DNA of 64,000 nt from Candidatus Iainarchaeum sp. (lineage in GTDB: Archaea > Iainarchaeota > Iainarchaeia > Iainarchaeales > 1-14-0-10-31-34): the NCBI GenBank assembly GCA_017609625.1, contig JAFCDN010000002.1, forward strand, positions 2,785 to 66,784. The letters are read 5' to 3'. Below, piece by piece: positions 713 to 61,802 of this stretch; position 1 is the stretch's first letter, and each line of letters begins with the position of its first letter. The notes beneath the pieces are model-generated. The model did not search any database and was not told the DNA's origin. It saw nothing but the letters and a program-made list of their open reading frames with translations. A program made the translations under genes and the position numbers.

Positions 713-1171
713 CTATTTTTTCTTTTTAAATTTTGTATAAAATACAAACCCTATAATTAATAAAGCAAAGAATAAAACAATCAGAGTTAAAAAAAAATGA
801 TGATAAAGAAGCTCGTCTATTCTTTCTTGAATAGAAACTTTTTGACAGGTGTCGTGTCCATAGTCTTGCGGCCCAAAATAAGGCTCTAAACCTTTACAGC
901 ATTTATCAAAATTAAAAACCATTTCTCCTTCTTTAACACATGGAAGTTCTTTTCTATATTCTGACCCACATTTTCCAGAACGAAATTCATAGGTAAGACA
1001 ACTTTTCCCGTCATCAAAAATGCAAACTTCATTTAAGTTATCGTCAAAACCCAATTTATATCCTTGGCGTTCACAAAATACTTTATCAGCTCCAAGAAAA
1101 GCTCCAGAAGAATAAGTCAATAAAGAAAGCAAAAACAATAAAACAACCAAGACCACAAGCAACTTTTTCAT
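713..1171 (-). CDS. DUF333-like Cys-rich protein with signal peptide and C-terminal TM anchor plus poly-Lys tail
   Basis: FCERQGYKLGFDD...CIFDDGKSC..EFRSGKCG resembles the DUF333 (YoaF-like) motif; N-terminal hydrophobic signal; C-terminal TM followed by KFKKKK. Confidence 0.55.
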   Translation of the reverse strand: MKKLLVVLVVLLFLLSLLTYSSGAFLGADKVFCERQGYKLGFDDNLNEVCIFDDGKSCLTYEFRSGKCGSEYRKELPCVKEGEMVFNFDKCCKGLEPYFGPQDYGHDTCQKVSIQERIDELLYHHFFLTLIVLFFALLIIGFVFYTKFKKKK

Positions 1172-1584
1172 GAACTTTGCCTCTTTTTCTTTCTTTTAAT
1201 ATAAAACAAAATAACAGCAGCTATTACTAAAATTATCAGCCAAACTTCTGGCTGAAATAAAATGTTTTTGCAGTGTGCCTGGCCAATCGACATAAATCCA
1301 AGATAAGGAGAGCTTCCAAAACAGCATTGCTCAAAACCAAAAACAGGGTTGCCTTCTTCAACACAAGAAAATTCTTTTTTATATTCTGCACCACAGCTTC
1401 CATCAAAAAACTCCCCTAAATCACATTTCTCCCCATCATCAAACACACAATACATTCCATCTTCAGATATCTCTACTTGATAACCTTGATGTTCACAAAA
1501 AGGAGGATAAGGATCCATAGCTCCAAAAACAAAAGCAGATAAAAAAACTAAAAATAAAATAAACAAACCAAAAAATCTTTTCAT
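1168..1584 (-). CDS. DUF333-like Cys-rich membrane-anchored protein (tandem paralog)
   Basis: FCEHQGYQVEISEDGMYCVFDDGEKCDLGEFFDGSCG; same architecture as the neighbouring gene; 4-nt overlap. Confidence 0.55.
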   Translation of the reverse strand: MKRFFGLFILFLVFLSAFVFGAMDPYPPFCEHQGYQVEISEDGMYCVFDDGEKCDLGEFFDGSCGAEYKKEFSCVEEGNPVFGFEQCCFGSSPYLGFMSIGQAHCKNILFQPEVWLIILVIAAVILFYIKRKKKRQSS

Positions 1585-5017: not shown

Positions 5018-5111
5018 TTTCTCTTCAATATAAAGTCAAAGATATATTTAAATACCTTCAATCACAGACTTATATATAATTTACCACTTTAGAGTGGTTA
5101 AGGGTGGTCTG

Positions 5112-7997
5112 ATGAAAAAATTTCTTGCTTTGATAATCTCTTTGATTTTTGTTTTAAGCTCAGTTAATGCTGCAGTTTTAGTTGATACTCATGATACATA
5201 TGAAGTTGAAGTCACTTCAGTTCAATTAAGAAGCTATTATGATTCTCACTGGAGCAATTCAATTACAGCAAACGACAATGATCCAATAGATATAAGGGCA
5301 GACATTTTTTTGGATTACTATAACTATTACGGAGACAGATATTATCCTTATGATTGGGTTGAAGTATGGGCTGAAGTTTATGCCTGGGACAACGGCGACT
5401 GGGTTTTTATTAAAGAAACCAATACACGACAGGTAAACCTTTATTATGCAGACCATAAAAGCGTTTACTGGTATGATGCTTTTTTTATTGACAATTATTA
5501 CAGCGAATACAAGGTTATAGTTAAGGCAAGAAATTATGAATACTACCAAGATTACAGCGAAAACTATGCTTTTATCAGTGTAAGAGAAGGCGGATTTGAT
5601 TCATACTGCAATGATATAGAAATTTTTTCAAATTCAATTGCCTTAAATGAAAATGAAGAAAAAAAAGTCACTTTTACAATAAAAAACAATTCAGATGAAA
5701 GGTTTTACATTGAACCAGATTCTTATGTGGATGAAATATACGGCGGCTCTTTTTTCAATGCATGGATTTATGATTATGACCGGTCAATTTCCGCAGGCGG
5801 AAGAGGAGAAGTAACAGTTAAAGTAAGAAGTCAAGAAGTAAGCGAAAATGAAGAAGGAAAAGCAAGACTAACAATTAAAGGAAAGTTTTACAGCGGAAAA
5901 ACATGCGATTCTGATATTAAAAGAGATTTCATTGTAAGAGTAGATAATGAATCAGAATATGAATCCTGCAAAGACATTAAAATTAATGCTTCAGATGAAA
6001 GAATGGAAGAAAACTCAACTGAATACTTTTCTTTTACTGTAAGAAATTATTCTAACACTGCATTCTATGCAAGGGCTGATGTAAGCAGTAACAACTCATT
6101 TTTTAATGCAACAGAAGAGCATTCAAATCAGGTTTACATTTCTCCAAACTCCACAGAAACATTTAGATACAAAGTAAAAAGCGATTATGTTTCTTACAAA
6201 GAAAGAGGAAAAATTTACATTAAGATTTCAGGCAATTACTCTGGCGGAGACAATTGCTCTTATTCAGAAATAGGACAAAAAACAGTTTATTTGACAGTAG
6301 AAGATAATTATTGGGAAGGAGAACAATGCGATGATTTGTCTTTGAGAACAAAAACTTTGTATGTTGATGAACAAGATGTTTATTCTGCTTCTTTTACAAT
6401 AGAAAACAATTCAAGCAGAAAATTTTACATTGAAGATATAGATTTTGATGAATACAGTTCAGAACTGGAATTCAGAAATGTAGATTACTCTTCACAAATT
6501 TCAGGAAACTCTGACAGCAAAGTTTCTTTTGATGTAAAAACAGGAAACATAAGTTCAGACAAAACAATTACTTCATACTTTAAAGTTGAAGGAAGTTTTG
6601 AAAACGGAAGAAGCTGTTCTTTTTCTGATACAAGAAAAAGATTTGATGTAAAAATAGATGCAGATTCTTCAGGCTCTTATTCAGAAAGCTGTAATGAAAT
6701 AGATGTAATCACTAGAACAGTTTCTTTGGATAAAGGAAAAACAGAATACTTTGAATTTACAATAGAAAATAATGAAGACAAAAAATTCTATGTTGATTAT
6801 GTAAATGCATATGACAATGATTCAAAGATTGAAACATCAGAATATGATTTTCCTTCAATAGTTTACGCAAACTCTGATGGAAAAATAAAAGTTAGAATTA
6901 AAGCAAACCAGACAGGAACAGCAACAGCATATATTGAAGTCAGAGGGCATTTTAGCAACGGAAAAAGCTGTTCTATTTCTGCAATAGGAAAAGAAAGCTT
7001 TACAGTAAAAGTTGAAACAACCACAAGAGACAGCTGTTCAGAATTTTATTTAGATACCCCTGCAACCAAAAGTGTTTTGGGAAGAGAAAAAATTGTTTTA
7101 AACATTGATAATCCAACAAACAAAAGCGGAACAATAAGAATCAGCGGAACAGATTTGTCAGTGAGTCCGCATACAATTGATGTTCCAAAAAACACTTCTT
7201 TTACTAAAACAATTGAAGTGGAATTACTTGAAGGAAAAGAAAGCTATTTAGTTTATAACATTTCTCTGGATGGATGTAATATTACCTCTAAAACCACAAA
7301 GATTTTTTCAACAAAAGAATCTTTTGAAGTTACAGGATATCCAAGGGAAAAAACTATTGGATTAGAAGACACAATTTCTTTTACCTTAGTAAACAATTCT
7401 GCTGTAACAAGAGACTTTAAGGTTTCATTGGAAAACCTGCCTTCTGGATGGAAAGCAAACCAGAAAAGCATTTCAATTCCAGGAAACTATGACAGAAGAG
7501 CAAGCATTTCATTAGAAGCAGATTCAGCAGGAACATACAGTGTTCTTTTGGTGGTTGAAACCGCAGGAAGAACAATAGAAAAAGAAATTGAATTAAGAGT
7601 AGAAGAAAAAGAAGTAACTGTTTCAGCTGAAACCACAAGTGGTTTCTTAAACGATTTGCAGTTAAAGATAACAATCGAAAATGAAACAGAACAAGACATT
7701 GAAGGAAATCTGATTGTAGATCTTCCAGAGAATTGGACCATGGAAGGAAACCCAAACATTGAAGTTAAAGCAAACAGCAAAAAAGAAATCTTCTTTTCTT
7801 TAAAAACTGACGGTACAGAAAAAGAATTTGATGTTTTATTAGAGTTAGAAGATGGAAGAGAAGTTTCAGCTACAGCTGACACAAAAGAAATTGGAAGCGG
7901 GACTGCATTGATTTCTTTAGGAAACAACGCAGGCTTGGTTGTTGGCTTGCTTGCAATAGTAATAGTAGTAGTAATTTTGCTTGTGAAAAGGCAATAG
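5112..7997 (+). CDS. Large secreted cell-surface protein with about 8 internal ~110-130-aa repeats and a C-terminal TM anchor
   Basis: Signal peptide MKKFLALIISLIFVLSSVNA; recurring ...F(T/S)(I/V)(K/E/R)NNS..(K/R)FYIE... modules with paired Cys; C-terminus GLVVGLLAIVIVVVILLVKRQ. Confidence 0.7.
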   Translation: MKKFLALIISLIFVLSSVNAAVLVDTHDTYEVEVTSVQLRSYYDSHWSNSITANDNDPIDIRADIFLDYYNYYGDRYYPYDWVEVWAEVYAWDNGDWVFIKETNTRQVNLYYADHKSVYWYDAFFIDNYYSEYKVIVKARNYEYYQDYSENYAFISVREGGFDSYCNDIEIFSNSIALNENEEKKVTFTIKNNSDERFYIEPDSYVDEIYGGSFFNAWIYDYDRSISAGGRGEVTVKVRSQEVSENEEGKARLTIKGKFYSGKTCDSDIKRDFIVRVDNESEYESCKDIKINASDERMEENSTEYFSFTVRNYSNTAFYARADVSSNNSFFNATEEHSNQVYISPNSTETFRYKVKSDYVSYKERGKIYIKISGNYSGGDNCSYSEIGQKTVYLTVEDNYWEGEQCDDLSLRTKTLYVDEQDVYSASFTIENNSSRKFYIEDIDFDEYSSELEFRNVDYSSQISGNSDSKVSFDVKTGNISSDKTITSYFKVEGSFENGRSCSFSDTRKRFDVKIDADSSGSYSESCNEIDVITRTVSLDKGKTEYFEFTIENNEDKKFYVDYVNAYDNDSKIETSEYDFPSIVYANSDGKIKVRIKANQTGTATAYIEVRGHFSNGKSCSISAIGKESFTVKVETTTRDSCSEFYLDTPATKSVLGREKIVLNIDNPTNKSGTIRISGTDLSVSPHTIDVPKNTSFTKTIEVELLEGKESYLVYNISLDGCNITSKTTKIFSTKESFEVTGYPREKTIGLEDTISFTLVNNSAVTRDFKVSLENLPSGWKANQKSISIPGNYDRRASISLEADSAGTYSVLLVVETAGRTIEKEIELRVEEKEVTVSAETTSGFLNDLQLKITIENETEQDIEGNLIVDLPENWTMEGNPNIEVKANSKKEIFFSLKTDGTEKEFDVLLELEDGREVSATADTKEIGSGTALISLGNNAGLVVGLLAIVIVVVILLVKRQ

Positions 7998-49368: not shown

Positions 49369-49448
49369 CTTTTTAAACCTGCGAAAAGCTTTTTATTAAG
49401 AATTGTACCCAAAAAGAAATGTAGTTTTTGCTACTAAGGAGGGGGAAT

Positions 49449-50765
49449 ATGAAAAAATTAATGATTTTAGTTTTATTGATTTTATTTTTTGGAGCAGTTA
49501 ATGCAAAAGAGCTTAAAGCTCTTGATTCAGATGTAATGGAAATTAATACTATTTTAGGAATTAATAATGAAACTGCAGCAGACTGCGGAGGAGCAGTTCA
49601 ATGCAACTGCGAAGACCGTTTAGTGGAAGACCAAGTTTTATGGTATGACTTGACTGGCTGCAGTTATGGAATAAGAATCAACGACAGCAATATTACATTA
49701 GACTGTAATGGCCATACAATAGAAGGAGACTATACAGGCGGAGAAGGTTATGGAATATTTTTTGCCGGCAAACAAGGAGTCACAGTTAAAAACTGCATTA
49801 TAAAAGGATTTTTTACAGGAGTATACAGTTACTCCAACAACTATTCTGAATTTTCAGACAACAGCGTAAGTGACAACCAGAATTTAGGAATCTGGTTAAA
49901 CCATTCAAACAACAACAATTTATTCAATAACACAACACACAACAATGAAGAAATAGGATTTTTTCTGGATGATTCAAACAACAACACAATATCAGAAAAC
50001 ACAAGTTATGATGAAATAGAAACTGGAATATCATTAGAAGACTCTTTTGGAAACGAATTAACAGGAAACAATATCAACAACATTGGCGGAATATTTTATC
50101 AATACGGCGTAGCAATTTTATTGAAGGGAAGCAACAACAACATCATTTCAGACAACAACTTATCAAACAACGGTTATTCAGGGCTTAGTTTGTTTGAAAG
50201 TAGCAACAACCAAGTAAACAACAACGAAATCTTTGGAAACGATCTTTATGGAATAGAACTTGCTTATGCTAACACCAAATACAACACTTTATGGAACAAT
50301 AATTTTTCAGACAATGCAACAAGCGCACCTGATGGAGGAAGTGCATATGAACACAATCTTGACTCAAACAGCAATGACTGGAATTTCGGAGAACAAGGAA
50401 ATTTTTGGGATGACTTTGAATCAAATCCAGGCTATCCAGACTATTATAAAATCTCAGGAAACGGATATGGAATAGACTGGCATCCAAACAAAGAAGTATT
50501 TGAATGCGGAATGTGGGGGGATGTAACAGGAGACGGGCAAGTAAATCCAGTTGACGTAGTGTATATGGTCAACTATGTATACAAACAATTAGATGCAAGA
50601 GTACAGCCTCCAAACTGTCCATTCCAAGCAGGAGATGTTGACTGCAATGACAATGTAAATCCAGTTGATGTAGTTTACATGGTAAACTTTGTATACAAAC
50701 AGCTTTATGGATTCTCTGACCCATGTGAAGGACTGCCAAACTGCAATGTAGAATTTCCAGTATAA
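49449..50765 (+). CDS. Secreted right-handed beta-helix protein with a C-terminal type-I dockerin (two Ca-binding repeats)
   Basis: Signal peptide MKKLMILVLLILFFGAVNA; repeated N-rich beta-helix turns (NCIIKGFFTGV...SDNSVSDNQNLGIWLNHSNNN...); dockerin repeats GDVTGDGQVNPVDVVYMVNYVYKQL and GDVDCNDNVNPVDVVYMVNFVYKQL. Confidence 0.65.
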   Translation: MKKLMILVLLILFFGAVNAKELKALDSDVMEINTILGINNETAADCGGAVQCNCEDRLVEDQVLWYDLTGCSYGIRINDSNITLDCNGHTIEGDYTGGEGYGIFFAGKQGVTVKNCIIKGFFTGVYSYSNNYSEFSDNSVSDNQNLGIWLNHSNNNNLFNNTTHNNEEIGFFLDDSNNNTISENTSYDEIETGISLEDSFGNELTGNNINNIGGIFYQYGVAILLKGSNNNIISDNNLSNNGYSGLSLFESSNNQVNNNEIFGNDLYGIELAYANTKYNTLWNNNFSDNATSAPDGGSAYEHNLDSNSNDWNFGEQGNFWDDFESNPGYPDYYKISGNGYGIDWHPNKEVFECGMWGDVTGDGQVNPVDVVYMVNYVYKQLDARVQPPNCPFQAGDVDCNDNVNPVDVVYMVNFVYKQLYGFSDPCEGLPNCNVEFPV

Positions 50766-50828
50766 AAAATAAAACAGATTTTAAAGTGCTGGGCAGCCAG
50801 CACAATTTTTTTTTATTCTTTTAAAATT

Positions 50829-51341
50829 TTATTCCCTTAAAAGTTCATCCATTTCTTTATCTAATTCTTTTGCAGTTTCTTCCATTTTCTTAAACACTAA
50901 ATCAATTTCATCTTGAAGCTCTTTAACAGTCCTAAGCATAGACTTGCTTCTTGCTCTGAATTTGCTTCCTTCTTTTAAGATTAAGCCAGATCTGTGAAGA
51001 TTATTTAAATGATTTGTAACTGCTCCTCTGCTCATATTGACTCTTTTAGCTATTTCACTGGAAGAAAGAGCATTCCCTGTTCCCCCGCCCTGCTGCAGCT
51101 GCCCAGTAGCTTTAACCAGTTCTTTAAACACAGAAGCAGCTGTTTTTCCTTTATCAATAGGCTCAAAAAAGCCCAAACACTGCAATAACCAATTAAATTC
51201 TTCATCTGCATGAGCCGAAAAAGGCTGTTCAACTCTTCTTATTACTACCTGAAAGCCATGCCTATCTGGAACAGGTTTTCTTCTGGTTAATTGAAGCCTA
51301 TGACAAAAAGTAAGTAGTTTTTTTTCATTTTCTTCCTGCAT
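50829..51341 (-). CDS. Winged-HTH transcriptional regulator divergently transcribed from grpE-dnaK-dnaJ (candidate heat-shock regulator); Arg-rich
   Basis: 170 aa; ...SSSEIAKRVNMSRGAVTNHLNNLHRSGLILKE... HTH. Confidence 0.5.
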   Translation of the reverse strand: MQEENEKKLLTFCHRLQLTRRKPVPDRHGFQVVIRRVEQPFSAHADEEFNWLLQCLGFFEPIDKGKTAASVFKELVKATGQLQQGGGTGNALSSSEIAKRVNMSRGAVTNHLNNLHRSGLILKEGSKFRARSKSMLRTVKELQDEIDLVFKKMEETAKELDKEMDELLRE

Positions 51342-51415
51342 AAAACTACTTTAGTACAAAAGGTTTAAAAAGATTTTGATTAAAGAGTTTAGTCATTGAT
51401 GAATCTTTTTGAGCA

Positions 51416-52021
51416 GTGATTAATTTGGTTGAGCATAAACAAGAAAAAGAAGCAGAAAAGCATAAAGACAAGAAAAAACAAAAAAAAGACCCTAAAGATG
51501 TAAAAATTGAAGAACTGACTGAATTAGTTAAAAGAGTTCAGGCAGAATTTGAGAATTTCAAGAAAAGAGAAGAAAAAGACAGGAAACAATTTGTAGAGTA
51601 CAGCAATGCAGAATTGATTTCCAATTTGCTTCCTGTTTTAGATTCAGTCCAAGCAGCCGAAAATACAGAAGAAGCAAAAAAATTAATTCAACCAATAAAA
51701 ACACAATTAACACAAGTATTAGAAAAATATGGATTAAAAGAAATAGAAGCTCTAGGAAAAAAATTCAATCCAGAATTGCATGACTGTTTAATGCAAGAAA
51801 ATGATTCAGAAAAAGAAAATAATATTGTATTAGAAGAACTGCAAAAAGGATATACTTTGAAAGACAAAGTTTTAAGGCATGCAAGAGTGAAAATCAACAG
51901 AAAAAAAACAGAAGAAAAACAACCTTTTTTAGAAAAAAAGGTTGCAACTCAAACCAAAGGTTTGAGTGCACAACAAAATCAAGATTTTGTTAGTGAACAA
52001 AAAAAAGGAGAAGAAAAATAA
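51416..52021 (+). CDS. grpE: Nucleotide exchange factor GrpE with a palindromic-repeat-encoded C-terminal tail
   Basis: ...LLPVLDSVQAA...GKKFNPELHDCLMQE...; the tail KKTEEKQPFLEKKVATQTKGLSAQQNQDFVSEQKK is encoded by repeat copy B. Confidence 0.8.
   Translation: MINLVEHKQEKEAEKHKDKKKQKKDPKDVKIEELTELVKRVQAEFENFKKREEKDRKQFVEYSNAELISNLLPVLDSVQAAENTEEAKKLIQPIKTQLTQVLEKYGLKEIEALGKKFNPELHDCLMQENDSEKENNIVLEELQKGYTLKDKVLRHARVKINRKKTEEKQPFLEKKVATQTKGLSAQQNQDFVSEQKKGEEK
51911..52005. repeat. ~95-nt composite three-hairpin repeat element, copy B, in frame at the grpE 3' end
   Basis: Differs from 14791-14885 by 1 nt (AAAGG vs AAAAG). Confidence 0.8.
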
Positions 52022-52218
52022 TAGTAAAAAATTAAATTCAAAATTTTTAGGAGATAAATTTTATGAATATAGAAGTTCAAGAAGAATTTGAGGAAGAAGA
52101 AATTCCAGAGATTCCAGAAGATGCAAAACCAGAACCTTTTTCAGAAAAAGGTTCAGAAAAAAACCAGAAAAAATTAAGGTTTGAGATTTATGCAAATTAA
52201 AAAAAAAGGTGATAAAAA

Positions 52219-54093
52219 ATGAGTAAAATAATAGGTATTGATCTTGGCACAAGCAATTCTGCAGCAGCAGTATTAGAAGGAGGAAAACCAAAAATAATTC
52301 CTTCAGCAGAAGGAGCAAGCCTTTATGGAAAAGCTTTTCCTTCAGCAGTGGCATTTACAAAAGACAAGCAGATACTTATAGGAGAGCCGGCAAAAAGGCA
52401 GGCAGTAAGCAATCCAGAAGGAACAATTACAGGGGCAAAAAGAAAAATGGGAACCATTTTCAAATACAAAACACAAGGAAAAGAATACACCCCTCAGCAA
52501 ATTTCAGCTTTTATTCTGCAAAAAATAAAAAAAGATGCAGAAAGCTTTTTAGGAGACAAAGTAGAAAAAGCAGTAATAACAGTTCCAGCATACTTTGACG
52601 ACAACCAAAGACAGGCAACAAAAGATGCAGGAAAAATTGCCGGATTAGATGTAATAAGAATAGTTAACGAGCCGACTGCTGCATCACTTGCATATGGTTT
52701 AGATAAAAAAGAAAAAGACCAGAAGATTTTAGTGTTTGACTTTGGAGGCGGAACTTTAGATGTAACAGTAATGGAATTCGGAGAAGGAGTTTTTGAGGTA
52801 AAGTCAACTTCAGGAGACACACAATTAGGCGGAAGAGACATGGATGAAAAATTACAGGAATACATTATAGCAGAATTCAAGAAATCTGACGCAGTGGATT
52901 TAACTAAAGACAAAATGGCTTTGCAGAGATTAAATGAAGCAGCAGAAAAAGCAAAAATTGAATTGTCTAATGTAATTGAAACAGAAATTAATCTTCCATA
53001 TATTACTGCAACAAAACAAGGGCCAAAACATTTAGTAATGAAATTAAACAGGGCAAAATTGGAAGAACTTGTAAAACCTATTGTAGAAAAATGCGAAAAA
53101 CCAGTAAACCAGGCTCTTGCAGATGCAAAACTGACTCCAGCAGATATTCACAAAATAATTTTAGTTGGAGGGCCAACAAGAATGCCTTTAGTGCAGGAAT
53201 TTATTGAAAAAATCGCAGGAAAAAAAGTTGAAAGAGGAGTTGACCCAATGGAATGCGTTGCAATGGGAGCAGCAATTCAGGCAGGGGTTCTTTCAGGAGA
53301 AGTAAAAGACATTCTGCTTTTAGACGTGACTCCATTGAGTTTAGGAATAGAAACTCTTGGAAGTGTTTTCACTAAATTAATTGAAAGAAACACTACAATT
53401 CCAACGAAAAAAAGCCAGATTTTTTCCACTGCAGCAGACAACCAGACAGCAGTCGATATTCATGTTTTACAAGGAGAAAGAGCAATGGCTTCAGACAATA
53501 AAACTTTAGGAAGATTTCAGTTAATCGGAATTCCTCCATCACCTCGCGGTATTCCACAGATTGAAGTGACTTTTGATATAGATGCAAACGGAATAGTACA
53601 TGTAACAGCAAAAGACATGGGAACAGGAAAAAGCCAGAAAATTTCAATTGTTGCCTCAGAAAAATTAAACGAAACAGAAATAGAAAAAATGAAAAAAGAA
53701 GCAGAACAGTTTGAAGAAACAGACAAAAAGAAAAAAGAAGAAGTAGATACAATCAACCAGGCAGATGCAGTAGTTTACCAAACAGAAAAAACACTCAAAG
53801 AAATGCAGGGAAAAGTTGATTCAGGAAAAATTCAGGGAATAAAAGACAAGGTTGCAGAACTGAAAAAACTTTTGGAAGCAAAAGAAAAAGATGCTTCTGC
53901 AATCAAAGTGAAACTGGATGAAGTGAATAAATTATTCCAGGAAGCTTCAACTGAATTATACCAAAAAGCAGCACAGCAACAGCAGGCACAGGCAGGAGCA
54001 CAAAAAGAAAAAAAAGACAAACCAAAAGATGAAAAAGTAGTGGACGCAGACTATAAAGTAGAAGACGAGAAAAAAGATGAAAAGAAAAAATAA
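52219..54093 (+). CDS. dnaK: Chaperone DnaK (Hsp70)
   Basis: 624 aa; [37 protein letters not shown]. Confidence 0.95.
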
Positions 54094-54095
54094 GA

Positions 54096-54135
54096 ACTGC
54101 CCCTTTCTTTCTTTTCCAAAAAGAAAGAAAGTGGT
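54096..54135 (+). terminator. T-rich palindromic tract after the dnaK stop (ACTGCCCCTTTCTTTCTTTTCC-AAAAAGAAAGAAAG)
   Basis: Shares ACTGCCC(C)TTTCTTTTC with the post-rps10 tract; hairpin plus oligo-T. Confidence 0.35.
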
Positions 54136-54255
54136 AAGTTAGCCCAAAGAAAGAAAAGGTAAAAAATTAGAAAAAGGAAAGAAAAAACAAAATTCAATTC
54201 ACTTAAATTCTTTTCTTTTCCTTTTTATTTTCTAGCAAAAAGAAAAATAAACTGA

Positions 54256-55392
54256 ATGAGCGGTTTTATGACAACAAAAAAAGACTATTATGAAATTTTA
54301 GGATTAAAAAAAGGCGCTTCAATTGATGAAGTGAAATCTGCATACAAAAAGCTGGCAAAAAAATATCATCCAGATATTTCAAAAGAAGAACACGCAGAAG
54401 AAAAATTCAAAGAAGTGTTAGAAGCTTATTCTGTTTTAAGTGATGAAAAAAAGAAATCAAATTATGACCAGTTTGGACATGCAGCAGAAGGATTCCAAGG
54501 ATTTGAAAGAGGCTTTGAAGGATTTGATTTCTCTGGAATGGGATTTGACGATGTTTTCAGCAGTTTTGGCTTTGGAGATATTTTTGGCGGAAGAGGAAGA
54601 AAAAGAGGGCCAAGAAAAGGAGTGGATTTGAGATTTGACTTGAATATTTCTTTTGAAGAAGCAGTATTTGGAATAAAAAAAGAAATTGAAATTGAAAGAG
54701 TTGAATCCTGCGATAAATGCAATGGGACTGGATCAGAAAAAAAAGATGGTTTGGTTGACTGCCCGCAATGCAATGGTTCTGGAATGCAGACTAGCGCACA
54801 GAGAACTCCTTTTGGGACATTCACTACTAGAACTACCTGCAGGAAATGCAGAGGAGAAGGAAAAACAGTAAAAAATCCCTGCACTAAATGTAATGGCGCA
54901 GGAAGAATGAAAAAAAGAAGAAAGATTTCTGTAACAATTCCAGAAGGAATCCGGAATGGAGCTTATTTAAGGTTAGCAGGAGAAGGAAATGCAGGGGAAA
55001 GAGGAGCAGGAAACGGAGATTTGTATGTAATCATTTTTATTGAACCTCACGAGTTTTTTAAAAGAGATGAAGCAGACATTTATGGAGAAGTTCCAATAAC
55101 ATTTTCTACAGCTGCACTTGGAGGCGAAATAGAAGTTCCAACCCTGAAAGGAAAAGCTGAATTAAAAATTCCTTCTGGAACCCAGACAGGAACAATTTTC
55201 AGGTTAAAAGAAAAAGGAATTAAAGACCTTGAAGAAGGCGGTTTTGGAGATGAATATATTAAAGTTATTGTAAGGACTCCAGAAAAGCTTTCAAAAAAAC
55301 AAAAAGAACTGTTTGAAGAAATAAAAGAAAAAGAACAAGAAACAGAAAACGGTTTCTTTAAGAGATTTAAAAAAGCATTCAAAAAAGAATAA
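54256..55392 (+). CDS. dnaJ: Chaperone DnaJ
   Basis: J-domain [31 protein letters not shown]; Gly/Phe-rich region; four CxxCxGxG zinc repeats. Confidence 0.9.
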
Positions 55393-60802: not shown

Positions 60803-61315
60803 ATGGATTATTCTTTTTTTATTGAAATTATTCTGGTTTTGATTCCATTGTATCTTGCAAATTCTTCTGCAATGCTTTTAGGAGGAAAAACTCCAATAGA
60901 CTTAAACCAGCATTTTGTTGACAAAAAACCTTTTTTAGGGAAAGGAAAAACAGTAAAAGGAACTTTGTTTGGAATAAGCATTGGAATACTTGCAGTTTTG
61001 TTGATTGACTTTTATTTCCAGGGAAAAGTTCCAATAATAAACAATTATCTGCATTATGGAATCCTTGTTTCTATAGGGGCAATTTTAGGAGACCTGATTG
61101 GAAGCTTTTTAAAGAGAAGAATGAATATTGAAAGAGGAAAACCTGTATTGCTTTTAGACCAGTTGGATTTTGTTATTGTAGGGATTTTATTTGGAAGTTT
61201 AGTGCATAAGGTTTCAGTTGAATTGTTTTTATTGGTTTGTGTTATTACTTTAATCGCGCACAGAATAGCAAATTTTGTTGCATTCAAATTCAAACTAAAA
61301 AAGGTTCCGTGGTGA
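60803..61315 (+). CDS. carS: CDP-archaeol synthase (CarS, DUF46)
   Basis: 170 aa; ...KKPFLGKGKTVKGTLFGISIGIL...GAILGDLIGSFLKRR... typical CarS. Confidence 0.7.
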   Translation: MDYSFFIEIILVLIPLYLANSSAMLLGGKTPIDLNQHFVDKKPFLGKGKTVKGTLFGISIGILAVLLIDFYFQGKVPIINNYLHYGILVSIGAILGDLIGSFLKRRMNIERGKPVLLLDQLDFVIVGILFGSLVHKVSVELFLLVCVITLIAHRIANFVAFKFKLKKVPW

Positions 61316-61316
61316 A

Positions 61317-61802
61317 ATGAAAATAGAAAAAAAAACTTTAATGTTTCTGGTAAAGTTTGGAATAATTTTTTCTGCACTGCATTTATTGGTTTGGACTGTT
61401 CCCACTTATTTTCTGCAGGACTGGATTGCATCACTTCAGGCAGGCTTTACAGGATTACAGGTTCACGGAAACCTTATTTTTTTAGGAGAACATAAAATTC
61501 TGATTAACCCTTCCTGCACTGGATTAATCAGTTCAAGCATTATTGCAGCAATAATTTTTTCTTTGCGAAAACCTGAAATTAAAAAAAAGATTCAGATTTT
61601 TTTGCTTGCAGCAATAATAATGTTTTTTTTGAATCTGATAAGAATTTACATTGTTCTGCTTGCAGGAATGCAGTTTGGCGGAGAATGGATTGGAATAATG
61701 CATGAAGCTTCCTGGCTTATGACCGCAGTTTTTATTGTGGGGTTATGGTATTATTTTACCAAAAAAATCACTAAAATAGAAGAGTTTAACGAGTTGCTCT
61801 AG
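61317..61802 (+). CDS. Short exosortase/archaeosortase-family protein
   Basis: 161 aa; INPSCTGLISSSIIAAIIF (Cys motif) and FFLNLIRIYIVLLAG (N..R motif) correspond to the sortase catalytic core. Confidence 0.5.
   Translation: MKIEKKTLMFLVKFGIIFSALHLLVWTVPTYFLQDWIASLQAGFTGLQVHGNLIFLGEHKILINPSCTGLISSSIIAAIIFSLRKPEIKKKIQIFLLAAIIMFFLNLIRIYIVLLAGMQFGGEWIGIMHEASWLMTAVFIVGLWYYFTKKITKIEEFNELL

Follow-up and report, generated by a model that had tools for sequence, protein, structure and literature searches.

The gene and its beta-helix domain

At positions 49,449 to 50,765 on the forward strand of the 64-kb stretch of DNA that was analyzed (the window), the open reading frame (ORF) list and Pfam searches delineated a coding sequence for a 438-amino-acid protein comprising a predicted signal peptide, a beta-helix and a dockerin. 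The frame opens with an ATG at 49,449 and its stop codon ends at 50,765; a protein identical to the 438-aa product is present in a public protein collection, on a contig of 68.8 kb. A purine-rich, Shine-Dalgarno-like run, AAGGAGGGGG (including GGAGGGGG at 49,438 to 49,445), was read from the sequence at 49,436 to 49,445 on the same strand, leaving a gap of 3 nt to this ATG, and supports it as the start rather than the TTG at 49,428. The start of an ortholog, P0002, corresponds to the equivalent MKKL. Residues 1 to 19 (MKKLMILVLLILFFGAVNA; 49,449 to 49,505, forward strand) form a predicted Sec-type signal peptide, as judged from the sequence and from a hydrophobicity scan that detected an N-terminal hydrophobic segment. 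Cleavage probably occurs after VNA and before KE, and the 438-aa protein would be exported. The same VNA ending was found in P0002 and in a 961-aa surface protein encoded elsewhere in the window. Downstream of the stop codon, a pattern scan identified a terminator-like hairpin and T-run (50,786 to 50,813, forward strand), as a match to the consensus only.

Genes for a beta-eliminating lyase and an HTH regulator, together with grpE-dnaK-dnaJ, neighbor this locus. In two other metagenomes, P0002 occurs in the order beta-eliminating lyase, gene, HTH regulator. Archaeal equivalogs scoring above their cut-offs in the window comprised L3_arch, aIF-2, eIF2-gamma, Kae1 and the archaeal GluRS, and no rRNA or tRNA was detected in the 64 kb by Rfam or ARAGORN. 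A pacearchaeosortase-like gene was also present in the window; with the archaeal equivalogs, the low GC and homologs named as Nanoarchaeota, it suggests a DPANN-type lineage.

Pfam and TIGR03804 matches showed that residues 45 to 346 (49,581 to 50,486, forward strand) comprise a Cys-rich cap (CGGAVQCNC...) and a right-handed parallel beta-helix cassette, which ends in GNFWDDFESNPGYPDYYKISGNGYGIDWHP. The 438-aa protein matched PF13229 Beta_helix with an E-value of 3.9e-28 (98.5 bits against a cut-off of 25.9), PF05048 NosD above its gathering score (E 9.9e-26), and the TIGR03804 parallel beta-helix repeat over five stretches (72.4 bits against a cut-off of 19.45). With several parallel beta-helix repeats above threshold, it belongs to the CASH/PbH1 group, and it shares with NosD/CASH proteins (PF05048, PF13229, TIGR03804) both these repeats and the N-terminal cap motif 'ITLDCNGHTI'. 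Identity with NosD proper (TIGR04247) was rejected, as the score of 44.7 bits fell far below the cut-off of 300, and no nos genes were found among the window ORFs scanned. These matches and the archaeal equivalogs bear out the sequence-only reading of this locus as encoding a secreted (by prediction) parallel beta-helix protein in an archaeon.

The nearest relatives of the cassette were Nanoarchaeota and Thermococcus proteins, surface proteins of archaea that contain between one and three NosD/CASH cassettes, such as a Thermococcus 'NosD domain-containing protein' and the Nanoarchaeota protein P0006, which carries the cassette three times. Unlike the 438-aa protein, P0006 and another such relative, P0007, have no dockerin. 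Pfam reported just Beta_helix and NosD on this passenger domain, with no GH, PL or CBM family at E≤1; the nearest solved sequence was that of the AlgG C5-epimerase, at an E-value of only 0.06. Parallel beta-helices of the NosD/CASH type typically bind or process polysaccharides, and a glycan-related role may be proposed for this one.

The C-terminal dockerin module

By homology and predicted fold, the C-terminal module (residues 353 to 426; 50,505 to 50,726, forward strand) is a genuine two-repeat dockerin, of a Cys-rich subtype characterized by the helix motif NPVDVVYMVNYVYK; PF00404, a module profile, AlphaFold and Foldseek all pointed to this assignment. The first predicted Ca-binding loop, DVTGDGQVNPVD (residues 358 to 369; 50,520 to 50,555), corresponds in alignment to the first loop of 4fl4_A and 1daq and is followed by the helix PVDVVYMVNYVYK, which extends to nucleotide 50,585 (model residues 21 to 33). 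The second, DVDCNDNVNPVD (residues 396 to 407; 50,634 to 50,669), was recognized from the sequence and precedes the helix PVDVVYMVNFVYK, which extends to nucleotide 50,699 (model residues 59 to 71); all four elements lie on the forward strand. As the sequence-only reading had described, VVYMVN(Y/F)VYKQL follows both 12-residue loops, and the two tandem EF-hand-like loops with their helices constitute a duplicated F-hand. The repeats are also evident at the DNA level, as a 47-nt direct repeat, 89% identical, with the copies 114 nt apart. Loop positions 1, 3, 5, 9 and 12 hold oxygen-donor residues, namely D, T, D, N and D in loop 1 and D, D, N, N and D in loop 2. In an alignment of 38 modules, loop 2 showed an invariant D at its positions 1 and 12, as did loop 1 at its position 12; position 1 of loop 1 was D in at least 90%. 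The loops are thus predicted to bind Ca.

The PF00404 Dockerin_1 model, a check that had been proposed for this module, matched residues 357 to 413 at 26.0 bits (E 1.1e-5) against a gathering score of 22.9, a small margin, over profile positions 2 to 54 of 57. When the profile of the 38 modules was compared with PDB sequences, 32 matches were obtained at E≤1. Almost every one was a dockerin, and below about E 0.03 there were no others; both repeats were covered. Solved dockerins gave E-values of 1e-8 to 1e-3, among them 1e-8 for 4fl4_A, 5.6e-7 for 1daq and 1.4e-5 for 1ohz_B. The AlphaFold2 model of the module (pLDDT 95.9, pTM 0.85) yielded dockerins as the first 29 matches in a Foldseek search of the PDB; the first 27 had probabilities of 0.96 to 1.00 and target-normalised TM scores mostly of 0.66 to 0.84, the best being 5nrk_B, 4dh2_B, 4fl4, 2mte and 2ccl_B, at a probability of about 1.0.

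The module is followed by a C-terminal tail, EGLPNCNVEFPV (residues 427 to 438; 50,727 to 50,762, forward strand), which was delimited by alignment and is retained in P0002. In the AlphaFold model, a strand at residues 86 to 89 (CNVE) runs alongside an N-terminal strand at residues 5 to 9 (FECGM). These strands may pair as a clasp, possibly with a Cys353-Cys432 disulfide, and the extra cysteines and the N/C-terminal strand clasp probably stiffen the dockerin.

The module resembles the type I dockerins of cellulosomal enzymes (PF00404), e.g., those of C. thermocellum Xyn10B (1ohz_B), Cel48S (2mte) and A. cellulolyticus DocCel5 (5nrk_B), in its two EF-hand-like Ca loops and helices, its repeat spacing of approximately 38 residues, its internal two-fold symmetry and its C-terminal place on a secreted protein, with fold TM scores of about 0.75 to 0.84 and profile E-values down to 1e-8. 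Unlike these dockerins, it has an unusually aromatic helix (VVYMVNYVYK), conserved cysteines (CxCG..., NCP, DxxC, CxDPC) and terminal strands that apparently clasp; its passenger is not a CAZyme, its host is an archaeon, and neither scaffoldin nor cohesin was found in the window. In C. thermocellum type I dockerins, the cohesin is contacted by Ser-Thr at loop positions 10-11 and by Lys-Arg at positions 17-18. Both repeats of the present module have Pro-Val and Val-Asn, respectively, at these positions and so fall outside type I in the strict sense, suggesting a distinct specificity subtype within Dockerin_1. The earlier assignment to type I therefore stands as regards the best structural matches, which are type I, but not as regards the Ser-Thr and Lys-Arg pairs, which are replaced, nor the extra conserved cysteines.

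The large surface protein and the search for a cohesin

The sequence-only reading had proposed that the surface protein encoded at 5,112 to 7,997 is a cohesin-bearing scaffoldin for this dockerin, within a cellulosome-like or adhesion complex. The attachment to a host that it raised as a possibility is speculative. For the surface protein, the reported length of 967 aa applies to translation from a GTG at 5,094; from the ATG at 5,112 the product is 961 aa. The proposal has some appeal, since the signal peptides of both proteins end in VNA, the larger protein ends in a membrane helix at its C-terminus, and its string of repeated beta-sandwich domains is superficially scaffoldin-like. In the AlphaFold model, eight Ig-like beta-sandwich domains follow one another in a chain; their boundaries were set from Cys spacing and AlphaFold secondary structure; a BLAST self-comparison detected no internal repeats. 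Cohesins measure about 140 to 150 aa. The domains of the 961-aa protein measure 95 to 122 aa, which argues against their being cohesins, and are bracketed by a Cys pair. No match to PF00963 (Cohesin) was obtained with the whole protein (E≤0.01) or with its eight domains (E≤10), for which Pfam reported nothing beyond weak Ig-like matches (MSP, DUF1573, Filamin and FixG_C). Comparison of the family profile with PDB sequences likewise retrieved no cohesin. The top 50 Foldseek matches of the model were to hydin/CFAP ASH-MSP chains and to alpha2-macroglobulin/complement MG domains, and did not include a cohesin, although the library contains cohesins and scaffoldin fragments. Moreover, the two genes lie 41 kb apart, and no GH, PL or CBM was found. 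The protein at 5,112 to 7,997, with its ASH/MSP- and MG-type Ig domains and no cohesin signal by Pfam, PDB profile or Foldseek, was therefore rejected as the scaffoldin, a role that we regard as very unlikely.

The search was not confined to this protein. No cohesin was detected with PF00963 among the other secreted, membrane or unannotated ORFs scanned in the 64-kb window, nor in 10 proteins adjoining Zixibacterial dockerin genes, in multi-dockerin proteins, or in the Pfam annotations already computed for the homologs retrieved. Given a passenger without GH, PL or CBM matches in Pfam and a window without a cohesin, the cellulosome reading was also abandoned: nothing in the window supports a multi-enzyme complex.

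Distribution, proposed function and origin of the module

To chart the subtype, GTDB representative genomes were scanned with a 10-sequence alignment as the query. A module-profile search of a 5.8-billion-protein collection returned short fragments only, without architectures. At E≤1e-10 there were 359 representatives of the subtype, nearly always as one module at the very C-terminal end of unrelated secreted proteins, most of which are peptidases. Modules 55 to 73% identical to that of the window were found on proteins with M6, C25, M14, C1, M23, M28, FG-GAP and PD40 domains. The named sources were mostly Zixibacteria (eight loci in one MAG), with Ignavibacteria and one Nanoarchaeota MAG; NCBI names some of the bacterial carriers 'dockerin type I domain-containing protein [Candidatus Zixiibacteriota]'. 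In the Nanoarchaeota MAG the module is present on two C25 peptidases, in a different version that is 82% identical to a bacterial-type one but only about 65% identical to the window copy. The dockerin-tagged secretomes of Zixibacteria and Ignavibacteria share with the window protein the same subtype (at 55 to 77% identity), cysteine pattern, NPVDVVYMVNYVYK helices and extreme C-terminal placement. Their passengers are, however, mostly peptidases (M6, M28, C1, C25, M14), FG-GAP or beta-propeller proteins encoded in genomes of 42 to 58% GC, whereas the window protein has an archaeal-type NosD/CASH cassette in an archaeal genome of 33% GC. Furthermore, the window module lacks the first and fifth cysteines of the bacterial versions and has the added tail EGLPNCNVEFPV.

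Dockerins outside cellulosomes are already known in archaea. Dockerin-like modules of this kind in bacteria and archaea were covered by Peer et al. (2009, FEMS Microbiol Lett 291:1), as cited in PMC9012536 and PMC10066038. As in our case, the non-cellulosomal dockerins of Archaeoglobus fulgidus, ANME and Omnitrophota reside on proteins unrelated to cellulose breakdown, i.e., peptidases, binding proteins and beta-helix proteins. The same two sources describe the organisms concerned as having no multi-cohesin scaffoldins and report proposals of a role in adhesion or surface tethering. According to PMC9012536, which cites Bayer 1999 and Haimovitz 2008, archaeal dockerin-cohesin pairs bind specifically, and in ANME and A. 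fulgidus the cohesins are encoded in the same genomes as the dockerins they were reported to bind; our window, by contrast, has no cohesin. Neither this Cys-rich subtype nor its occurrence in DPANN archaea appeared in the literature searched.

We favor, with moderate confidence, a model in which a genuine dockerin mediates the Ca-dependent tethering of a glycan-binding or -processing beta-helix to a surface receptor. A DPANN-type (Nanoarchaeota-like) archaeon would export the protein through Sec, and Ca2+ would fold the dockerin module after export. Its two near-identical helix faces could then bind non-covalently to a putative receptor, perhaps a cohesin-like beta-sandwich or other surface ligand encoded outside the window. 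Such binding would hold the beta-helix on a cell surface or in a matrix. The same plug recurs on many other secreted proteins of Zixibacteria and Ignavibacteria, chiefly peptidases, as well as on the Nanoarchaeota C25 peptidases. Cellulosomal cohesin-dockerin pairs are fast-diverging and species-specific. The helix face of the present subtype, on the other hand, hardly varies between two bacterial phyla and an archaeal lineage, which sits uneasily with tethering through a cohesin and could indicate that a conserved ligand other than a cohesin is bound. The lack of type I recognition residues, the failure to find a cohesin, and a beta-helix without a catalytic-family assignment also count against the tethering model.

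A different, though clearly less probable, explanation is that the dockerin fold functions here without cohesin binding, as a C-terminal tag stabilized by Ca2+ and disulfides that recognizes a conserved non-protein ligand (such as an envelope or matrix glycan) or acts as an export or anchoring signal. It would account for the absence of cohesins from the window ORFs scanned, the Zixibacterial neighbors and the multi-dockerin proteins, for the nearly always single module at the extreme C-terminus, and for an exposed helix motif, NPVDVVYMVNYVYK, that is almost unchanged across phyla and domains. Set against this, every solved relative of the module is a cohesin binder, the helix face is duplicated with near-perfect two-fold symmetry, in a way that recalls dual-binding-mode dockerins (e.g., 2vn5/2vn6, among the structural matches), and in no genome did our cohesin search extend beyond a small portion. 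In Zixibacteria, secreted proteins encoded next to the dockerin proteins have a Por_Secre_tail where the latter have the dockerin, so that these T9SS C-terminal domains offer a positional analogy with the module. We know of no T9SS in archaea, however; a sorting-signal role could therefore not carry over to the DPANN copies, for which it is unlikely. The adhesin role proposed for the non-cellulosomal dockerins of Omnitrophota (PMC10066038) is a further point in favor of a non-cohesin tag.

With its bacterial relatives, the gene might also be viewed as a Zixibacteria-like sequence mis-assembled or mis-binned into the archaeal contig, in which case there would be no archaeal dockerin. The module is indeed 70 to 77% identical to modules on contigs of 51 to 58% GC, Zixibacteria figure among the named sources of the subtype, and the GC3 of the gene (0.32) is somewhat above that of its neighbors (0.19 to 0.26). 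Nevertheless, the gene lies 49 kb into a contig of archaeal housekeeping genes and has archaeal genes to either side, its GC content of 0.355 matches that of the window (about 0.33), and among all 150 best matches it has the amino-acid composition most typical of low GC. A 45%-identical ortholog with the same neighbors occurs on two independent metagenome contigs of 33 to 34% GC, and the closest beta-helix relatives are Nanoarchaeota and Thermococcus proteins. Based on the native low GC and the syntenic ortholog, the gene is native to the archaeal genome, and contamination is extremely improbable.

The module itself probably entered DPANN archaea by an old transfer from bacteria. To our knowledge, the means by which DPANN archaea attach to other cells are largely unknown, with surface proteins being the main candidates. 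The near-identical putative binding face in bacteria and DPANN archaea and the distinct Nanoarchaeota version might reflect repeated capture of a bacterial docking plug by DPANN archaea, which would use it to fasten their surface enzymes, or whole cells, to a receptor on bacteria or in a bacterial matrix. We consider this highly doubtful; if true, it would amount to molecular mimicry across domains, in the service of episymbiosis with a bacterium and not with another archaeon. In practical terms, the DPANN dockerin is a small, expressible and putatively Ca-dependent binding module that could serve as bait for its receptor. It is shared with Zixibacteria at 70 to 80% identity across domains and a 20-point GC gap; what seems to have passed between domains is a tag for protein-protein interaction, not an enzyme.

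A dockerin module on a secreted beta-helix protein

The dockerin gene runs on the forward strand from an ATG at 49449 to a stop codon ending at 50765 and encodes a protein of 438 aa. A longer form initiated at a TTG at 49428 is unlikely, because a GGAGGGGG run lies 3 nt upstream of the ATG and the closest ortholog, P0002, begins at the equivalent MKKL. Pfam matches to Beta_helix (3.9e-28) and NosD (9.9e-26) were obtained, together with NCBIfam parallel-beta-helix repeats (n = 5), and the N-terminal sequence, MKKLMILVLLILFFGAVNA/KE, resembles a Sec signal peptide. These findings agree with the sequence-only reading, which had described a secreted beta-helix protein ending in a bona fide two-repeat dockerin. 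Both 12-residue loops named there were located in the ORF, at aa 358-369 and 396-407, with VVYMVN(Y/F)VYKQL after each; at the DNA level, the duplication appears as a 47-nt direct repeat (89% identity, spacing 114 nt).

By Pfam, the Dockerin_1 match passed its gathering score (26.0 vs 22.9 bits). Given this thin margin, further tests were made. A profile of 38 C-terminal module copies drawn from the homolog search gave 32 matches at E<=1 against all PDB sequences, nearly all of them dockerins; every match below about E 0.03 was a dockerin or a dockerin-bearing enzyme, with both repeats covered, e.g., 4fl4_A (1e-8), 1daq (5.6e-7) and 1ohz_B (1.4e-5). The AlphaFold2 model of the module (aa 347-438, same alignment; pLDDT 95.9, pTM 0.85) has two helices where expected, plus short terminal strands. 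When it was compared with the PDB using Foldseek, dockerins filled the first 29 places, the first 27 having probabilities of 0.96-1.00 and target-normalised TM scores mostly of 0.66-0.84. The positions that bind calcium in EF-hands and dockerins are occupied by D,T,D,N,D in one loop and D,D,N,N,D in the other. Taken together, the profile matches, fold, structural neighbors and ligand residues establish the module as a genuine dockerin family member.

Its earlier designation as type I does not hold in the classical detail. Type I dockerins of C. thermocellum have Ser-Thr at loop positions 10-11 and Lys-Arg at helix positions 17-18, whereas the window module has Pro-Val and Val-Asn, respectively. 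Cysteines are conserved across the 38-module alignment as a CxCG motif preceding loop 1, an NCP within the linker, one residue inside loop 2 and a terminal CxDPC. The window module retains five cysteines and has an extra tail, EGLPNCNVEFPV, common to P0002. In the AlphaFold2 model a strand within this tail forms alongside an N-terminal strand, and the two may pair as a clasp enclosing a disulfide.

Origin of the gene and its module

The window passes the cut-offs for the archaeal L3, aIF-2, eIF2-gamma, Kae1 and GluRS equivalogs and encodes CDP-archaeol synthase; by these markers it is archaeal. A DPANN-type archaeon is the best reading, given these equivalogs, a GC content of about 33%, Nanoarchaeota MAG proteins as the closest beta-helix homologs that carry a name, and an archaeosortase-family gene weakly similar to pacearchaeosortase. 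Although the 64-kb window holds a complete ribosomal-protein/SecY cluster and numerous genes for translation, it yielded no tRNA with ARAGORN and no Rfam match at the gathering score.

The dockerin gene is flanked by a beta-eliminating lyase on one side and by an HTH regulator, then grpE-dnaK-dnaJ, on the other. The likelihood that it is a contaminant, foreign to the archaeal contig, is negligible: its GC (0.355) matches the window, with a GC3 (0.32) slightly above that of its neighbors (0.19-0.26), and P0002, which is 45% identical and shares the signal peptide and C-terminal tail, occupies the identical position on two independent metagenome contigs of 33-34% GC. The gene is native to the archaeal genome. 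Its passenger cassette, spanning CGGAVQCNC to GIDWHP, occurs in three copies without a dockerin in the Nanoarchaeota protein P0006, and Thermococcus 'NosD domain-containing' proteins are also among the passenger matches; judged by these homologs, the cassette is an archaeal-type unit. The protein thus joins an archaeal beta-helix cassette to a dockerin of bacterial type, and the lineage has kept it. Immediately downstream (50829-55392), the regulator is of a winged-helix (ArsR/MarR-like) type and divergent from the bacterial-type grpE-dnaK-dnaJ operon; its position is also kept beside P0002 (loci L017 and L018).

A first homolog search returned ~40 proteins aligning only over their last ~80 residues (about 46-73% identity), with unrelated N-terminal domains (peptidases M6, C25, M14, C1, M1 and M23; also FG-GAP, PD40 and fn3). 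Scanning GTDB representative genomes yielded 16 module loci: 10 in four Zixibacteria MAGs (8 of these in one MAG), four in Ignavibacteria and two in a single Nanoarchaeota MAG. The Nanoarchaeota loci, encoding Peptidase_C25 plus Dockerin_1, have 31-34% GC and the bacterial loci 42-57%. A profile search run exhaustively over 1.84 billion representatives recovered 359 proteins (E<=1e-10), and in nearly all of these a single module copy sits at the extreme C-terminus; among the best 150, only the window protein, P0002 and perhaps one or two more had a low-GC amino-acid composition. The window module shares 78% identity with that of P0002, 77% with a fragment whose contig has 58% GC and 72% with a C25 peptidase from a contig of 51.5% GC. 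The module of L005, one of the Nanoarchaeota loci, is 82% identical to bacterial-type P0221 and only about 65% to the window module. The simplest reading is that DPANN archaea acquired a Zixibacteria-type bacterial module on more than one occasion, which is suggestive rather than proven since 74 residues give limited phylogenetic signal.

Archaeal dockerins as such are not new: non-cellulosomal ones are established from A. fulgidus, from the survey of Peer et al. 2009 and from ANME archaea, where they occur together with cohesin-bearing proteins (PMC9012536). For ultra-small Omnitrophota, an adhesin role of dockerins has been put forward (PMC10066038). Our literature search found no paper connecting dockerins with Zixibacteria; the top-ranked literature on Woese-, Pace-, Nanoarchaeota or other DPANN did not mention them, and the papers examined among the few naming both 'dockerin' and 'DPANN' referred to dockerins only in other organisms. 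The uncommon feature is the bacterial-type, Cys-rich subtype in DPANN archaea, and a real dockerin on a DPANN protein offers a practical way into the surface biology of these archaea.

Several further arrangements were observed among module-bearing proteins. In the Nanoarchaeota MAG MM_PC_MetaG.mb.88, L005 (25-2133) and L008 (148-3144) encode Peptidase_C25-like proteins in which the dockerin is followed by a conserved Ser/Pro linker and an 'NAP..L(N/D).(F/L)V..YP' segment; in L008 the dockerin is internal, N-terminal to the peptidase. The L008 protein ends in IVGDFVRDLF and an unrelated fragment, P0283, in IVGDFVKGLF, which may represent an undescribed C-terminal motif. Five proteins matched in the exhaustive search (P0199, P0202, P0232, P0250 and P0280) carry arrays of 4 to 13 Dockerin_1 stretches, fused to a subtilase in P0199 and to a peptidoglycan-binding domain in P0232. 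In the Zixibacteria MAG Dive96_bin10.176 (L002, L004, L011), dockerin-tagged secreted proteins cluster, two to four per 12-kb locus. At L002 they adjoin a protein that bears, in the equivalent place at its C-terminus, a T9SS Por_Secre_tail, which points to two C-terminal tagging systems side by side within one secretome; a Por_Secre_tail protein is also present at the Ignavibacteria locus L012.

Candidate receptors and proposed function

The sequence-only reading had proposed the anchored surface protein at 5112-7997 (+) as a scaffoldin. This 961-aa protein has a signal peptide, eight domains, i.e., a Tyr/Trp/Asp-rich N-terminal domain of 140 aa followed by seven beta-sandwiches, and a C-terminal membrane helix ending KRQ. 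A Cys pair 80-100 residues apart brackets five of the domains, and in the AlphaFold model (pLDDT 75.9) the N-terminal domain is joined to a chain of beta-sandwiches, each of 95-122 aa. Only ten homologs, all of ~950 aa, were found among 5.8 billion proteins, none with a precomputed cohesin annotation. Pfam detected no Cohesin in the whole sequence, nor in the eight single domains even at E<=10, where weak matches were to the MSP, DUF1573, Filamin and FixG_C Ig-like families. The family profile matched no cohesin in the PDB, and the top 50 Foldseek matches, without a cohesin or scaffoldin, were to hydin/CFAP ASH-MSP chains and alpha2-macroglobulin or complement MG domains. On this evidence the protein was rejected as a scaffoldin; its receiving the dockerin through cohesins is highly improbable, and a cellulosome-like complex is not supported.

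The dockerin protein combines a predicted secretion signal and a CASH/NosD-type beta-helix with a dockerin that recurs at the C-terminus of many secreted proteins as a portable tag. We consider it fairly probable that the dockerin tethers the beta-helix to a surface receptor, cohesin-like or other. After Sec export, Ca2+ would fold the dockerin, which would bind the receptor non-covalently and hold the beta-helix at a cell surface, where it could bind or modify polysaccharide. The two helix faces of the module are almost identical to each other, resembling the dual-binding-mode dockerins 2vn5/2vn6 found among the Foldseek matches. The main alternative, which we regard as possible but somewhat unlikely, has the module binding a ligand other than a cohesin or serving as a tag. 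Two points argue for it. The binding face stays conserved between phyla and even between domains, in contrast to cohesin-dockerin pairs, which are species-specific; and cohesins were absent from all remaining window ORFs that have a signal peptide or a membrane segment, the unannotated ORFs scanned, ten proteins adjoining Zixibacterial dockerin genes (including T9SS-tailed proteins and peptidases) or the five multi-dockerin proteins. Docking of the DPANN dockerin onto a bacterial receptor, across domains, appears very unlikely.

An archaeosortase and its possible substrates

Directly after CDP-archaeol synthase (60803-61315, +), a 161-aa archaeosortase/exosortase-family protein is encoded at 61317-61802 (+). 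It matches TIGR04178 at 49.9 bits (cut-off 23), with weak similarity to ArtE and 'pacearchaeosortase' below those cut-offs. Known sorting-signal models did not match the dockerin protein or the 961-aa protein. At 713-1171 (-) and 1168-1584 (-), tandem overlapping paralogs of 152 and 138 aa each combine a signal peptide with a sub-threshold Cys motif resembling DUF333 and, at the C-terminus, a hydrophobic segment; one also has a sub-threshold Loki-CTERM sorting-domain match (17.5 bits vs 19.9). The two paralogs are possible archaeosortase substrates.
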